Notes under the pieces: generated by a model | What the model was told of the DNA's origin: nothing | Databases searched by the model: none | Seen by the model: only the letters and a program-made list of their open reading frames with translations | In this document: piece by piece, positions 1 through 4,319 of the stretch | Numbering within the stretch: position 1 is the first letter of the stretch | Layout of the letters: every line of letters starts with the position of its first letter | Position numbers and translations under genes: made by a program | Virus record (IMG/VR): IMGVR_UViG_2778261247_000018 | From: a virus | Taxonomy: Duplodnaviria > Heunggongvirae > Uroviricota > Caudoviricetes | Strand: one strand, 5' to 3' | Length of the DNA stretch: 4,319 bases

Positions 1-1134
1 TCTGGTGTGCTGACAGAGGCTGCCATTGACGAGCCACGATTTGAACGTGATGGCCTGCTTATTGAGGGGCAAAGAACTAATCTTCTGCTTAATTCAACAA
101 ATCCATCTAAATGGAATAAGTCAAGCAATCTGGAACTCACAGAAATATCCACGGATTCTTTTAATTTTACTTATGGTAGATTTACTGTAAAAGATACTCT
201 TATTGGTCAAACAAGTGCGATTAGTATCGTAACGGTTTCTGGCAGTAAAGGATTTGATGTCACAGGTGATGAAAAATATGTGACCATTTCATGCCGTGTC
301 AGAAGTGATGTTGAAAATATAAGGTGTCGTTTAAGATTTGAACATCATGATGGTTCTACTTACACTTTTTTGGGAGATGCTTACCTCAATTTATCAACAC
401 TTTTAATTGAACTAACTGGTGGTGCTGCAAATCGTATTATTTCAAAGGCAGTAAAAGATGAGGCTACTGGTTGGATTTTCTTCCAAGCTACAATTAATGC
501 ACTGGATACTGAGAGCATGATTGGTGCGATGGTTCAGTACGCTCCAGTAAAAGGTTCAGGCACAGTATCCGGAGACTATCTGGATATCGCAACTCCACAA
601 GTGGAAGGTGGATCAAGTGCTTCGTCATTTATTGTAACTGATATAACTGCAAGCACTCGCGCAAGCGATATGGTGACAGTCCCAATCAAGAATAACCTTT
701 ATAATCTTCCTTTTACAGTTCTTTGTGAGGTACATAAGAACTGGTATAAAACGCCAAATGCAGCACCGCGTGTTTTTGATACCGGCGGTCATCAAACCGG
801 AGCGGCTATTATTCTTGGCTTCGGTCGTTCAACAGATTACGACGGATTTCCTTATTGTGATATAGGTTTGGCTAACAGACGGGTAAACGAAAACGCATCG
901 CTTGAAAAAATGGTTATGGGGATGCGTGTAAAGTCAGATCAGTCTACGTGCTCAGTAAGTAACGGGCGTATATCCAGCGAAACAAAAACCACATGGTCAT
1001 ATATTCAGAACTCCGCAATTATCCGTATTGGAGGCCAGACTACAGCCGGGTTACGCCATTTATTTGGTCATATCAGGAATTTCAGAATATGGCACAAGGC
1101 ATTGACTGATGCTCAGATGGGGGAGTCAATCTAA
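1..1134 (+). CDS. Phage tail fibre / receptor-binding-like structural protein, C-terminal portion (5' end outside window); C-terminus resembles a LamG / concanavalin-A-like lectin domain
   Basis: The frame is open from base 1 (codons 1-3 and 4-6 are tct ggt, no stop), so the listed GTG at 7 is probably internal. Stop TAA at 1132-1134. The C-terminal motif ...LFGHIRNFRIWHKALTDAQM is, from memory, typical of LamG-like jelly-roll domains in phage tail proteins. Lies directly upstream of a recognisable tail fibre gene on the same strand, with the next gene overlapping its stop (TAATG). Confidence 0.55.
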   Translation, partial: SGVLTEAAIDEPRFERDGLLIEGQRTNLLLNSTNPSKWNKSSNLELTEISTDSFNFTYGRFTVKDTLIGQTSAISIVTVSGSKGFDVTGDEKYVTISCRVRSDVENIRCRLRFEHHDGSTYTFLGDAYLNLSTLLIELTGGAANRIISKAVKDEATGWIFFQATINALDTESMIGAMVQYAPVKGSGTVSGDYLDIATPQVEGGSSASSFIVTDITASTRASDMVTVPIKNNLYNLPFTVLCEVHKNWYKTPNAAPRVFDTGGHQTGAAIILGFGRSTDYDGFPYCDIGLANRRVNENASLEKMVMGMRVKSDQSTCSVSNGRISSETKTTWSYIQNSAIIRIGGQTTAGLRHLFGHIRNFRIWHKALTDAQMGESI

Positions 1135-1415
1135 TGAAAGATTTAACACTCAAATTTGAAGACAGGGCCGACTTTTCGGCCTTTATGGATAGCACTGGCT
1201 ATTATGATGACGAGTCGATGCAGGATAATATTCTTATTGACGTGATAGGTAACGTGTACAAAGAAACCGGAGAACTGACTGAAGATGGCGAACCGGTATG
1301 TGTTAAGGAAGACGGATATTTTGTAAACGTGCGCATCATTAATGATGTGAAAACACCGTCATTATTCGATGAATACGCGGTTGCTGTTGAGCATCAACTT
1401 CGTGGCTGGATGTGA
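1134..1415 (+). CDS. Hypothetical small acidic protein (93 aa), translationally coupled to the upstream fibre-like gene; possible fibre assembly chaperone or adaptor
   Basis: ATG at 1134-1136 overlaps the upstream stop (TAATG). Shine-Dalgarno GGGGGAG at 1119-1125 with about 8 nt spacing. Stop TGA at 1413-1415, followed 9 nt later by the next gene. Protein is rich in D/E with no hydrophobic segment. I recognise no family; the functional suggestion is by position only. Confidence 0.55.
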   Translation: MKDLTLKFEDRADFSAFMDSTGYYDDESMQDNILIDVIGNVYKETGELTEDGEPVCVKEDGYFVNVRIINDVKTPSLFDEYAVAVEHQLRGWM

Positions 1416-1424
1416 GGAAGGAAA

Positions 1425-2465
1425 ATGGCTACATCGACAGTAATTCCTGATGATATCAAAACGCTAAAATCCGACGTTAGCAAATTAAAAACCGATCAAG
1501 GAAACTACGCAACAAAATCTTATGTAGACAATAAAACAACATGGAATGGTTATTGCAATGTAATCTATGATCAAAAAACATTGCCAACAACTGGAACTAT
1601 ATTCAGCGGTAAGCTGCATTTGTCAAATAAAACTGGTGAAACGGAAAACGCTTCTAGTGACATATATACCAGAAAAAATATTGACGGTACAAAAGATACA
1701 ATGACAAGGATTGTCACACACAATGGAACAAAAGGTATCTTTTGGGACTTTAGTGATCTTTACGGAGGAACTTTAATTTTCCCTGGTACTTCAGGTTATC
1801 TGAAAATGGGGAACTGTCTCATGTCGTATGGGGATCGTGTAGATAATGCCCTGATTAAATTTGATTATACAGACACATTACAGATCAAATATGCTAATCA
1901 CGGGTCGACCATGACATTAAACACACAGGGAACCGCTTATGCTGGTGTTACTGCTAAATTGTGGGGCAACTCTAGCCGTCCGGTTGTTTATGAAGTCGGT
2001 GTTGATGGTGGCGCTTATATGTTCTATGCGCAGAAAAATACCGATAACACCTATATGTTAAGCGTTAATGGTGCATGTCATGCCACCGCATTTAACCAGC
2101 ATTCCGACCGGGATCTGAAAGACAACATTCAGGTGATCGATAATGCAACCGACCGCATCCGTAAAATGAACGGCTATACATACACGCTTAAAGAAAACGG
2201 TATGCCCTATGCAGGTGTCATTGCACAGGAAGCTCTGGAAGCAATCCCAGAAGTTGTAGGTTCCGCAATGAAATATCAGGACGGTGCAAGCGGATCGGAA
2301 GGTGAAGAAGGTGAACGTTATTACACAGTAGATTATTCTGGTGTTACTGGCTTGCTTGTTCAGGTAGCCAGAGAGTCAGACGACAGAATAACAGTACTGG
2401 AAGAAGAAAACGCAGAATTAAGGCAAAGATTATCTGCAATTGAGGCGACGCTTGCGTCTAAATAA
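1425..2465 (+). CDS. Tail fibre protein with C-terminal intramolecular chaperone (peptidase S74 / endosialidase-chaperone-like) auto-cleaving domain
   Basis: RBS AGGAAGG at 1415-1421, ATG at 1425, stop TAA at 2463-2465. The C-terminal ~120 aa contain ...NQHSDRDLKDNIQVID... followed by a long helical tail (...EENAELRQRLSAIEATLASK). The Ser (codon 2103-2105, residue 227) and Lys (codon 2118-2120, residue 232) are spaced as in the Ser-Lys dyad of endosialidase / T5 pb1-type chaperone domains, as I recall them. Confidence 0.8.
   Translation: MATSTVIPDDIKTLKSDVSKLKTDQGNYATKSYVDNKTTWNGYCNVIYDQKTLPTTGTIFSGKLHLSNKTGETENASSDIYTRKNIDGTKDTMTRIVTHNGTKGIFWDFSDLYGGTLIFPGTSGYLKMGNCLMSYGDRVDNALIKFDYTDTLQIKYANHGSTMTLNTQGTAYAGVTAKLWGNSSRPVVYEVGVDGGAYMFYAQKNTDNTYMLSVNGACHATAFNQHSDRDLKDNIQVIDNATDRIRKMNGYTYTLKENGMPYAGVIAQEALEAIPEVVGSAMKYQDGASGSEGEEGERYYTVDYSGVTGLLVQVARESDDRITVLEEENAELRQRLSAIEATLASK
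2103..2462 (+). other. Predicted intramolecular chaperone / autoproteolytic domain of the tail fibre (cleavage expected at Ser227, leaving a mature fibre of about 226 aa)
   Basis: S-D-R-D-L-K motif with Ser and Lys five residues apart, then a conserved-looking helical C-terminus. Domain boundaries are approximate. Confidence 0.65.
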
Positions 2466-2476: not shown

Positions 2477-2794
2477 ATGCGCCCCGTTTTATTGGGTAGG
2501 ATGAAAATGGATATAACACCTTTTCTTCATGCGCTTTGTGCTGTGGCTGCGCAGGTACTGATTGGCCTTTTTACCGGAAACTGGGCTTACGGTGCGATAG
2601 CCGGTTGTACGTTCTTCATTGCGCGTGAACACACCCAGGCAGAATATCGCTGGATTGAAATGTTCGGGCATGGCAAGCGAATGAATATGCCGTGGTGGGG
2701 CGGTTTTGATCCGCGCGCGTGGGATGTAGCAAGCCTGATGGATTTTGCTGTGCCGGTGGTGGCGTGTCTGCTGATCTGGATGTTGATCCGTTAA
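2477..2794 (+). CDS. Small two-helix membrane protein (about 96-105 aa) in moron position; function unknown
   Basis: ORF 2477-2794, stop TAA at 2792-2794. ATG at 2507 has the better RBS (AGGA at 2498-2501, 5-nt spacer), so the true start may be 2507. Two hydrophobic segments (ALCAVAAQVLIGLFTGNWAYGAIAGCTFFIA and FAVPVVACLLIWMLI) flank a Trp-rich loop. Hand-counted GC of 60-nt lines is about 48-58% here against 32-37% in much of the fibre genes. Confidence 0.6.
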   Translation: MRPVLLGRMKMDITPFLHALCAVAAQVLIGLFTGNWAYGAIAGCTFFIAREHTQAEYRWIEMFGHGKRMNMPWWGGFDPRAWDVASLMDFAVPVVACLLIWMLIR

Positions 2795-2911: not shown

Positions 2912-3160
2912 TTAGTGAACAAACCACTCGTCAGCAGACTCCCAGGTATCTTTCAGAGTTTCCTGAACAAAAGTTTTAGCTGAATCTTTATCGGCGGTGC
3001 GCGTAACAGAAAGGCCATCGTTGCTGGTGGCTTTTACGATCACCTCTACATCGTCATAACGTTTACTGATGCGTCGGGTTAATTCTTCCTTTAACGCATC
3101 CACAGCACCGTTTGGCATTTTAGTCATTTTTTCTTTGGCTATGCAGATCTCAATACGCAT
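2912..3160 (-). CDS. dinI: DinI-family protein (DNA-damage-inducible protein I homologue, 82 aa)
   Basis: MRIEICIAK...[14 protein letters not shown]...LSV...[13 protein letters not shown] aligns by eye along its whole length with E. coli DinI as I recall it (81 aa; MRIEV.IAK...GAIDALAGELSRRI...ETWESADDWFV). ATG is the reverse complement of 3158-3160, SD GAGGG sits 6 nt upstream on the minus strand, stop TAA is the reverse complement of 2912-2914. LexA boxes lie immediately upstream. Confidence 0.88.
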
Positions 3161-3221: not shown

Positions 3222-4319
3222 TCAAGAGGTCTTATTTCTGCTCCTTTGGAGCTCTTCAAAACGATTATGTAAAGATTTCGGATACAGTTCGGTATATACC
3301 TGCCATAGCACGTTTAATGAACGATGCCCTGTAACCTGAGCGACTTCCTCAATACTAAAACCAGCCTCAAATAAGCGACTTGCCCCTTCTCTACGCAAAT
3401 CATGGTATCGCAGATCTTTAATACCTAATTTGCTTCTTACCCTCTGAAATCCTGCAGTAACAGAAGTGCTGTTATATGGAAAAATGAATTCCGATTTTTT
3501 GGGCTGTCGTTGGACGATATCCCAGGCTTCCCCAAGCAAGGCTACTTTCATGTGGTTGCCTTCCTTTTTGCGTGGATCTTTCCTGTCTCTTACGAGTATA
3601 GATTTTTGTTCCTGGTCGAGATCTTCCCATCGTAACCGGCATACTTCTCCGATCCGCATACAGGACCACACAGAAAATTTGAGGATATCAACGAACGGAA
3701 TTTTTGAGCATTTATGAGTAGATCGTTGTTGAAGGCCTTCAATGAGCATGTCCAGTTCATCAGATGCTGGTCTACGATTACGACGGTTTGATTTACCAAT
3801 CAAACCAAGTTTAAGTAGATATGGGCGAGCGCTTTTCGCCGGGTTTGATGTGTAATTAATTCCGTATACAGGTTTGGCCGCATCCAGAACACTGCCAAGA
3901 TAACTAACATCGTGGCTGACTGTTGCTGGACCTGCACCAGCGTTGTTTCTTAGCCTGCAATGTTCAATTACGTCATTTTCTGTCAGTTCAGATAGTTTGA
4001 TCGCGGAGATGTCACTATCCATAAGCAGTTCCAGCACATATCTTTTAGTACGGCCTGCTTTACCTCCGGCATTTGGGTCATTTAAATATTTGTGTAGTAA
4101 GTCACGGACTGTAAGTCCGTCAACTGCATTTGATGATGGAATGCCATATAGATCTAATTCCATCACTTTCTGTGTTCCCCATGTTTTGGCATGAGCATGT
4201 TTAGGGAATGTTTTGCTTTCCCTGTAAGTGATAACACCTTTTTCTTTGATAATCACATTACAGCGATAGCGTGGTGTGCCATCGGATTTTAGTCGTTTCT
4301 CTATGTTATAGTACGCCAT
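3222..4319 (-). CDS. int: Tyrosine-type site-specific recombinase / phage integrase (365 aa as seen; start codon at the window edge, so the N-terminus could extend beyond it)
   Basis: Catalytic-domain motifs in the expected order in the C-terminal half: ...MRIGEVCRLRWEDLD... (box I Arg), ...YHDLRREGASRLFEAGFSIEEVAQVTGHRSLNVLWQVYTELYP (H-x-x-R, then GH, then a Tyr 10 residues later). The last block resembles the Rci / Xer / phage-integrase box II (GHRSxNxLxxY). Stop TGA is the reverse complement of 3222-3224. The ATG is the reverse complement of 4317-4319, the final three bases of the window. Confidence 0.85.
   Translation of the reverse strand: MAYYNIEKRLKSDGTPRYRCNVIIKEKGVITYRESKTFPKHAHAKTWGTQKVMELDLYGIPSSNAVDGLTVRDLLHKYLNDPNAGGKAGRTKRYVLELLMDSDISAIKLSELTENDVIEHCRLRNNAGAGPATVSHDVSYLGSVLDAAKPVYGINYTSNPAKSARPYLLKLGLIGKSNRRNRRPASDELDMLIEGLQQRSTHKCSKIPFVDILKFSVWSCMRIGEVCRLRWEDLDQEQKSILVRDRKDPRKKEGNHMKVALLGEAWDIVQRQPKKSEFIFPYNSTSVTAGFQRVRSKLGIKDLRYHDLRREGASRLFEAGFSIEEVAQVTGHRSLNVLWQVYTELYPKSLHNRFEELQRSRNKTS

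Follow-up and report, generated by a model that had tools for sequence, protein, structure and literature searches.

The open reading frame (ORF) at positions 1425-2465 of a Caudoviricetes DNA stretch (IMG/VR record IMGVR_UViG_2778261247_000018; 4,319 nt, read on a single strand and called the window below) probably encodes the distal, or branch, subunit of a two-part side (lateral) tail fibre, a subunit that most likely docks on the proximal fibre encoded upstream. The two fibre genes are separated by a small gene for a 93-aa acidic protein, p93, and the distal fibre begins with a short anchor tag that recurs behind p93 in unrelated phages. The ORF is intact, with 346 codons, a strong Shine-Dalgarno site, and the N-terminus MATSTVIPDDIKTLKSDVSKLKTDQG; the match to phrog_4563, 'tail fiber protein', spans its whole length (E 9e-209), and its RefSeq name is 'tail fiber domain-containing protein'. 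The window is the right end of a lambdoid prophage and is the same as the chromosome of Escherichia coli VTB97074v everywhere but at one base (window 1227). Given that the tyrosine integrase of this prophage immediately adjoins dusA (L095:10798-13021), the prophage sits at the dusA attachment site. Self-cleaving S74 fibres and two-part or branched lateral fibres are established, and the gene itself is common and already annotated as tail fibre: related sequence is present in 712 of 5,426 complete E. coli genomes, and at least 80% of the gene in 249 of those. What is new here is the short conserved tag, its strict linkage across phage families to p93 and to a lectin-ended fibre, and the cassette structure of the 346-aa class of distal fibres.

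The earlier, sequence-only reading of this DNA had recognized in the C-terminal domain the Ser227-Lys232 spacing of self-cleaving intramolecular chaperones, and a profile search bears this out. PF13884 (Peptidase_S74) matches residues 227-278 over profile positions 1-57 of 58 (E 6.3e-14, 52.4 bits); with a gathering cut-off of 22 bits and the first position of the profile on Ser227, this goes far beyond a chance match. The dyad lies in the context NQH/SDRDLKDNI, with Ser at residue 227 and Lys at residue 232. In an alignment with T5 pb1, DT57C LtfA, DT57C LtfB, and three sister fibres, these are two of only four invariant columns, and they fall on T5 Ser1264 and Lys1269, which are catalytic by experiment (PMC4690869). 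T5 pb1 (PDB 4UW7, 4UW8, 5AQ5) likewise has a C-terminal S74 chaperone, whose Ser-x4-Lys dyad aligns residue for residue; it is cut immediately before the Ser, exposing a glycan-binding tip, and offers the biochemical precedent for cleavage. In that protein, the S1264A substitution stops autoproteolysis, the mature fibre ends at residue 1263, and phage adsorption is competed by the cleaved form only (PMC4690869). By homology, the distal fibre is predicted to be cut at His226/Ser227, leaving a mature fibre of the approximately 226 residues proposed before. The calculated masses of 38.1 kDa for the precursor, 24.85 kDa for residues 1-226, and 13.22 kDa for residues 227-346 agree with the expected products of about 25 and 13 kDa. 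No equivalent of T5 Arg1250 emerged from the monomer model; Arg185 is invariant.

N-terminal of residue 227, Pfam detects no domain in the distal fibre. The AlphaFold2 monomer model is mediocre (pLDDT, a predicted score for the local distance difference test, 67; predicted template modelling score 0.34), as would be expected of an obligate trimer. It comprises a helix at residues 9-30, a β domain at residues 58-118, a poorly defined linker, a well-predicted β domain at residues 151-214, the chaperone region, and a long helix at residues 304-345; the pLDDT is about 80 for residues 50-110. The N-terminus had been described as short and probably coiled, and this description holds: there is a single predicted helix (the pLDDT averages 76 over residues 11-20 and 63 over residues 21-30) with an a/d heptad pattern of I11, L14, V18, and L21 read from the sequence, and neither a long shaft nor a virion-binding domain. 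The β domain delimited as residues 141-226 is the most confident part of the model (pLDDT 84-91) and is 76-100% identical among alleles. It carries a T4 gp34-like motif (WGNSSRPVVYEVG...FYAQKN...VNG), and Foldseek assigns it to 4uxe and 5nxh with a probability of 0.99. When the PDB is searched with the single sequence, S16 gp37 is the sole match; a profile of 71 homologues finds T4 gp34 (4uxe, E 9e-9) just before the cleavage site and the chaperone region of S16 gp37 (6f45, E 5e-7), and matches neither T5 pb1 nor K1F. By PHROG profiles, residues ~45-340 share homology with the C-terminal tips of much longer fibres, 738-1,567 aa in length (phrog_6921, 5668, 6578), a relationship which suggests that the distal fibre amounts to a 'tip plus chaperone' with almost nothing ahead. 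The label 'short tail fibre' given in the sequence-only reading needs qualification: the fibre is indeed small, but it is not of the T4 gp12 type and represents the distal or branch piece of a side fibre.

Database records give a different picture of such genes. Those of ESCO3, VogelGryff, and KurtStettler name the product 'endosialidase chaperone' or 'putative lateral tail fiber chaperone', and Pfam finds no S74 domain in the upstream proximal fibre, as though the product were a trans-acting chaperone of that fibre and no structural fibre itself. This is highly improbable, because the characterised S74 domains work in cis, their substrate being the stretch of polypeptide on their N-terminal side (PMC4690869), and here that polypeptide is a run of 226 fibre-like residues homologous to the tips of 738-1,567-aa fibres, including a variable cassette of ancient divergence. 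Moreover, phage 21 and ev243 have the same type of proximal fibre without the distal gene. The recurrent 'chaperone' misannotation of these genes is corrected by this result.

The proximal fibre is a homologue of lambda Stf, consisting of a PF08400 N-terminal domain (E 6e-67), an Ala-rich shaft, and a C-terminal region of ~375 aa that corresponds to positions 418-793 of the 793 positions of phrog_1419, 'tail protein'. Within this C-terminal part, the NCBIfam model GTA_spike_fiber (a gene transfer agent (GTA) head-spike-fibre domain) matches residues 18-219 (E 6e-16) and Laminin_G_3 weakly matches residues 323-370; it constitutes a lectin-like receptor-binding region and, presumably, the docking partner of the distal fibre. 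The last ~35 residues are kept across all phage families compared (...RIGGQTxxGxRHLFGHxRNFRxWH...). In RefSeq, the Prokaryotic Genome Annotation Pipeline (PGAP) splits the gene (L095:6332-8710) into four items, namely a 'pseudogene', a hypothetical ORF on the antisense strand, and coding sequences of 109 aa and 417 aa. Pseudogenisation is ruled out by tblastn with intact homologues, which recovers a single uninterrupted frame of ~793 codons, and thus the split is an annotation artefact in the region of the Ala-rich shaft.

Proximal fibre, p93, and distal fibre form a module with a fixed order: an Stf-like fibre with a lectin-like C-terminal domain, p93, and the tagged fibre. It is found in lambdoid phages (Tritos), T5-like phages (Salmonella phage FGS017 and Escherichia phage IrisVonRoten), Queuovirinae (Nonagvirus ESCO3 and the Seuratvirus phages VogelGryff and KurtStettler), Drexlerviridae (orkinos), and Dhillonvirus (KarlBarth); Tritos, 2G7b, and HannyBb are isolated phages that carry it. 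In T5-like phages, the module lies directly after the collar/LtfC gene, at the place of pb1. The N-terminus of the proximal fibre follows the chassis, being Stf-like in lambdoids and pb1/LtfA-like in T5-likes, while its C-terminal domain and p93 stay. With a mass of 10.7 kDa and an isoelectric point of 4.1, p93 is encoded 9 nt ahead of the distal gene; its homologues occur in 181 phage records and stand directly behind a fibre with the conserved C-terminus in every locus inspected.

The third gene of the module is constant only at its beginning. The tag, with the core motif M[AV]T[SKV]T[VIN]IPxDI[KT]xLK, opens this gene in five of the six relatives compared, VogelGryff having a shifted variant (MAKTITNIPKDITNLK). 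Six classes drawn from different phage families agree without exception at nine of the first 15 residues, and beyond about residue 20 the genes cannot be aligned between classes, so that the first ~15-20 residues are the sole part common to the third genes of lambdoid, T5-like, Seuratvirus, Drexlerviridae, and Dhillonvirus phages. The tag is present in each p93-centred IMG/VR locus having a readable downstream gene; conversely, p93 ends at most 30 nt upstream of the tagged gene in all 81 of the 81 tag-centred loci. The classes behind it are the 346-aa form of the window, a 234-aa form, a 510-aa form, a 'T-shaped' form of 574-581 aa, and a form without S74 (KarlBarth). This array of whole genes of 234, 346, 510, and 574-581 aa behind one tag is in line with the exchangeable receptor-binding module that the sequence-only reading had envisaged.

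Some of these classes have peculiarities of their own. The 234-aa class (L026:6292-6996 and ~25 other IMG/VR loci) combines the same tag with an S74 domain at residues 116-172 and a coiled coil of greater length; its mature part would comprise only ~115 residues, making it an even more minimal fibre. In phage orkinos (L090:4292-5030), a gene of this class is split into overlapping ORFs of 86 and 168 aa, which could stem from a frameshift or from an error in sequencing, or could be programmed. The KurtStettler gene (L093:4289-5821, 510 aa) has its S74 domain at residues 208-259, followed by ~250 more residues, so that the chaperone domain is, unusually, not C-terminal; this Gly- and Cys-rich extension is homologous to a separate downstream gene of VogelGryff. 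A p93/tagged-fibre junction of the E. coli-phage type also occurs on a 2.8-kb contig (L099, JAGZNZ010000051.1) in the bin of a Collinsella metagenome-assembled genome, likely as a binning contaminant. The possibility that the tag is the anchor known from DT57C LtfB and phiEco32 gp15 is ruled out, as the LtfB N-terminus (MSRPLMPKSGAMAPYVV) has no similarity to it and a TxIPxDI motif occurs in neither LtfA nor LtfB of DT57C.

As to the socket, docking had been suggested to occur on another protein, possibly one of the two upstream gene products. The proximal fibre fits this role, in view of the shared tag, the p93 linkage, and the model published for IrisVonRoten, whereas the retention of p93 in phages lacking the distal fibre makes it a less likely candidate for a dedicated socket. 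It is kept without a following tagged gene in phage 21, Lambda_2E9, ev243, and Vequintavirus CarlMeissner; Vequintavirus myophages carry p93 and the conserved fibre end, and no tagged distal gene was found there. Given this persistence, p93 probably belongs primarily to the proximal fibre, which in turn favours docking on the C-terminal end of that fibre. As an accessory of the proximal fibre, p93 may be a chaperone or a component of the joint, a structural role being possible though doubtful.

A variant of this model takes p93 itself, not the proximal fibre, for the socket, as a structural adaptor that binds the tag at the fibre-fibre joint in a manner analogous to the T4 gp35/gp36 connectors. 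p93 and the tag are always neighbours and change together between phage families: p93 is ~39% identical where the tag reads MVTKTVIPTDITKLK and at least 89% where it reads MATSTVIPDDIKTLK, and in FGS017 both have diverged, while the proximal C-terminus is 91% identical to that of the window. Furthermore, changes in the variable part of the proximal fibre are not mirrored in p93, which is unlike a domain-specific chaperone, and its fold is compact, confidently predicted, and without a known chaperone relative. However, the retention of p93 in the four phages without a tagged distal gene speaks against this variant, and its co-variation with the tag is confounded by the 9-nt spacing; on the whole, p93 as the socket is rather unlikely. 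Equally tentative is the notion that the lectin end of the proximal fibre, the novel-fold p93, and the 15-20-residue TVIPxDIxxLK tag constitute a universal, chassis-independent 'plug and socket', with p93 as a hitherto unrecognised structural joint and not a chaperone; side fibres of at least five siphovirus lineages may by this means be fitted with unrelated tips, S74 and non-S74 alike.

It should be noted that several points weigh against docking on the proximal fibre. When proximal fibres with and without a distal gene are aligned, no segment specific to the former group appears, so that no docking site can be singled out, and ev243 and CarlMeissner have the proximal sequence type that accompanies a distal gene, yet no tagged gene. 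In addition, part of the co-occurrence of tag, p93, and proximal fibre could be owed to physical linkage, with 9 nt between the genes, and the sampled loci are mostly closely related E. coli prophages. A distal fibre that is independent of the other and attached directly to the tail tip, through J or another baseplate-like protein, would find a parallel in S74 fibres with a virion anchor of their own, such as gp114 of Wifcevirus ManiWeber (BASEL). Such an attachment is improbable, because the 22-residue tag is common to phages with unrelated tail tips, namely the lambda-like J, the T5 pb3/pb4/collar, and the J-like proteins of Queuovirinae and Drexlerviridae, in which p93 and the conserved proximal C-terminus are the only shared neighbours of the tag. 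Docking on the proximal fibre remains the preferred reading.

The distal fibre is a mosaic. Among the members of the 346-aa class, identity to the window protein is at least 95% over residues 1-22, with a nonsynonymous rate (dN) of 0, and residues 141-346 are 76-100% identical, whereas residues 23-140 are either ~51% or 88-96% identical and hence define two alleles, of which the window carries the rarer ('NKTTWNGYCN'). In this cassette, the synonymous rate (dS) is ~2.5, that is, saturated, with a dN/dS of 0.16, pointing to old alleles moved by recombination and not to positive selection in place. The cassette is likely the specificity-determining part, and its two deeply diverged alleles, flanked by the constant tag on one side and the conserved C-terminal half on the other, again accord with an exchangeable core. 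The last 375 aa of the proximal fibre vary as well (37-97% identity), independently of the distal allele. FGS017 matches window positions 1-1109 with 91.8% nucleotide identity (L002:5001-6109), and similarity falls away beyond this point, placing a recombination joint ~25 nt before the proximal stop codon; the p93 proteins of the two are only 39% identical in amino-acid sequence. The two also differ in lifestyle, FGS017 being a virulent T5-like Salmonella phage and the window a temperate E. coli prophage. From the independent variation of both fibres and the FGS017 joint, it follows that both fibre proteins hold independently exchangeable binding parts with constant junction elements on either side.

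All four segments of the distal fibre are under purifying selection, with dN/dS values of 0-0.2. This bears on whether the prophage could be defective and the gene a remnant in decay and without function, for which one might cite the truncated copies of 90-323 aa in some prophages and the RefSeq annotation, in which the source prophage has a broken upstream fibre. Decay is very hard to reconcile with such dN/dS values, with a window copy that is full length and intact in its dyad and Shine-Dalgarno site, with the uninterrupted 793-codon frame of the supposedly broken gene, and with the same module in the isolated phages Tritos, 2G7b, and HannyBb; a remnant is therefore extremely unlikely.

Assembly and function of the distal fibre can be proposed in five steps. 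First, within the late tail operon its translation comes immediately behind that of the Stf-like proximal fibre and p93, as shown by the order of the genes, the overlap at ATGA, and the Shine-Dalgarno site. Second, by homology to T5 pb1 and the K1F endosialidase, the C-terminal S74 chaperone (residues 227-346 with the terminal coiled coil) would register three chains and template the folding of the preceding β-structured tip. Third, once the trimer is correct, the Ser227-Lys232 dyad would cut the His226/Ser227 bond, freeing a 13.2-kDa chaperone and leaving a 226-residue mature fibre (24.9 kDa) with its distal tip unmasked. Fourth, the tag (residues 1-22) and a short trimeric coiled coil (residues 9-30) would plug into the C-terminal end of the proximal trimer, possibly with the participation of p93, so that the side fibre would then have two binding units, the proximal lectin-like domain and the distal tip; docking is suggested by the strict co-occurrence across unrelated chassis and by the published models of the IrisVonRoten homologues. 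Finally, as the mosaic pattern implies, specificity would shift by recombinational swap of the cassette at residues 23-140 or of the whole gene behind the tag, independently of the equally variable C-terminus of the proximal fibre. Judging from relatives, O-antigen or another surface glycan is the likely ligand.

The closest described system is gp22-gp23-gp24 of IrisVonRoten (Bas32, Tequintavirus), which has the same three-gene order. There, gp24, composed of a gp12-like RBD1, a T5-like RBD2, and a chaperone, has been modelled with AlphaFold-Multimer in attachment to the proximal gp22, a fibre whose C-terminal domain is galectin-like; the small middle protein and the tag are not discussed (BASEL, PLoS Biol 2025; 10.1101/2024.09.12.612763). 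The proximal C-terminal domain of the window is 64% identical to gp22 and p93 is 38% identical to gp23, whereas the similarity of the distal fibre to gp24 is confined to the tag (10 of 17 residues identical) and the S74 chaperone. With 574 aa, gp24 is 'T-shaped' owing to the T4 gp12-like RBD1 inserted after the tag, an insert of ~235 aa in FGS017 and IrisVonRoten that has no counterpart in the window protein; the latter has an unrelated 118-residue cassette in its place and is 228 residues shorter. Thus, the window protein is a shorter architectural variant of the IrisVonRoten-type distal fibre, borne by a lambdoid prophage instead of a virulent T5-like phage.

The genetic precedent comes from LtfB of DT57C and DT571/2, a second S74 fibre without a tail-binding domain, which is carried by LtfA via a short N-terminal region and adds a second O-antigen specificity (Golomidova 2016; Ayala 2023). 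In fact, the window protein matches phrog_6921 (E 4e-20), the family that includes DT571/2 gp107 (LtfB in DT57C). Nevertheless, the phiEco32 gp15-like N-terminus of LtfB (MSRPLMPKSGAM) is unrelated to the TVIPxDIxxLK tag, LtfA ends in an S74 domain of its own, unlike the lectin-ended proximal fibre, and ltfA and ltfB are not separated by a p93 gene. The proximal fibre shares with lambda Stf the N-terminal domain and the place after J and lom. In contrast, the lambda Stf/Tfa system has its own distal tip and a separate Tfa chaperone, with no S74 subunit, p93, or second fibre gene. Related chaperones serve other passengers, as in the K1F endosialidase chaperone, MEROPS S74, and the MyRF ICA, where these are a tailspike sialidase and a eukaryotic transcription factor.

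Side-fibre modules set the O-antigen and capsule types that a temperate phage can reach and hence which E. coli strains are lysogenised or killed. The 22-residue tag may suffice to mount a 200-residue tip on a resident fibre and may work on lambda-like, T5-like, and 9g-like chassis alike, in which case it would be a ready-made handle for host-range engineering.

Table 1. Features of the fibre module and its neighbourhood in window coordinates.
Feature	Position	Strand	Remark
Proximal side tail fibre, last 375 codons of ~793-aa gene	7-1134	+	Gene start upstream of window
p93, 93-aa acidic protein	1134-1415	+	ATGA overlap with proximal-fibre stop
Shine-Dalgarno sequence GAGGAAGGA of distal fibre gene	1414-1422	+	Read directly from sequence
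Distal fibre precursor, complete ORF, stop included	1425-2465	+	346 aa, 38.1 kDa
N-terminal anchor tag, aa 1-22, MATSTVIPDDIKTLKSDVSKLK	1425-1490	+	At least 95% identical in every 346-aa allele
Variable cassette, aa 23-140	1491-1844	+	Bimodal identity; predicted β domain aa 58-118
Conserved β domain, aa 141-226, up to predicted cleavage site	1845-2102	+	T4 gp34-like motif
Predicted scissile bond His226/Ser227	2100-2105	+	Homology to T5 pb1
Intramolecular chaperone / S74 self-cleaving domain, aa 227-346, 13.2 kDa	2103-2462	+	
Ser227 codon	2103-2105	+	
Lys232 codon	2118-2120	+	
C-terminal coiled-coil helix, aa 304-345	2334-2459	+	
95-aa membrane protein	2507-2794	+	phrog_1443
DinI-like gene	2912-3160	-	
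Tyrosine integrase	3222-4319	-	

Beyond the genes listed in Table 1, an Rfam scan of the window returned no RNA family, and repeat, promoter, and terminator scans yielded solely a hairpin at 2810-2845, between convergent genes. The antisense and alternative-frame ORFs inside 1425-2465 are 40-50 aa each, and nothing was found to back them. An imperfect inverted repeat of 19 nt (1063-1081 / 1442-1460; 15 of 19 complementary) has one arm in the conserved end of the proximal fibre gene and the other in the anchor-tag codons; there is no invertase in the window, and the repeat is probably due to chance.

The 95-aa membrane protein encoded after the distal fibre has no match in Pfam or NCBIfam. Its gene closes the fibre module in lambdoid prophages with or without a distal fibre, following p93 directly in phage 21, Lambda_2E9, and ev243, and was not seen behind the module in those lytic relatives that were inspected. 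Its role may lie in lysogenic conversion or exclusion.

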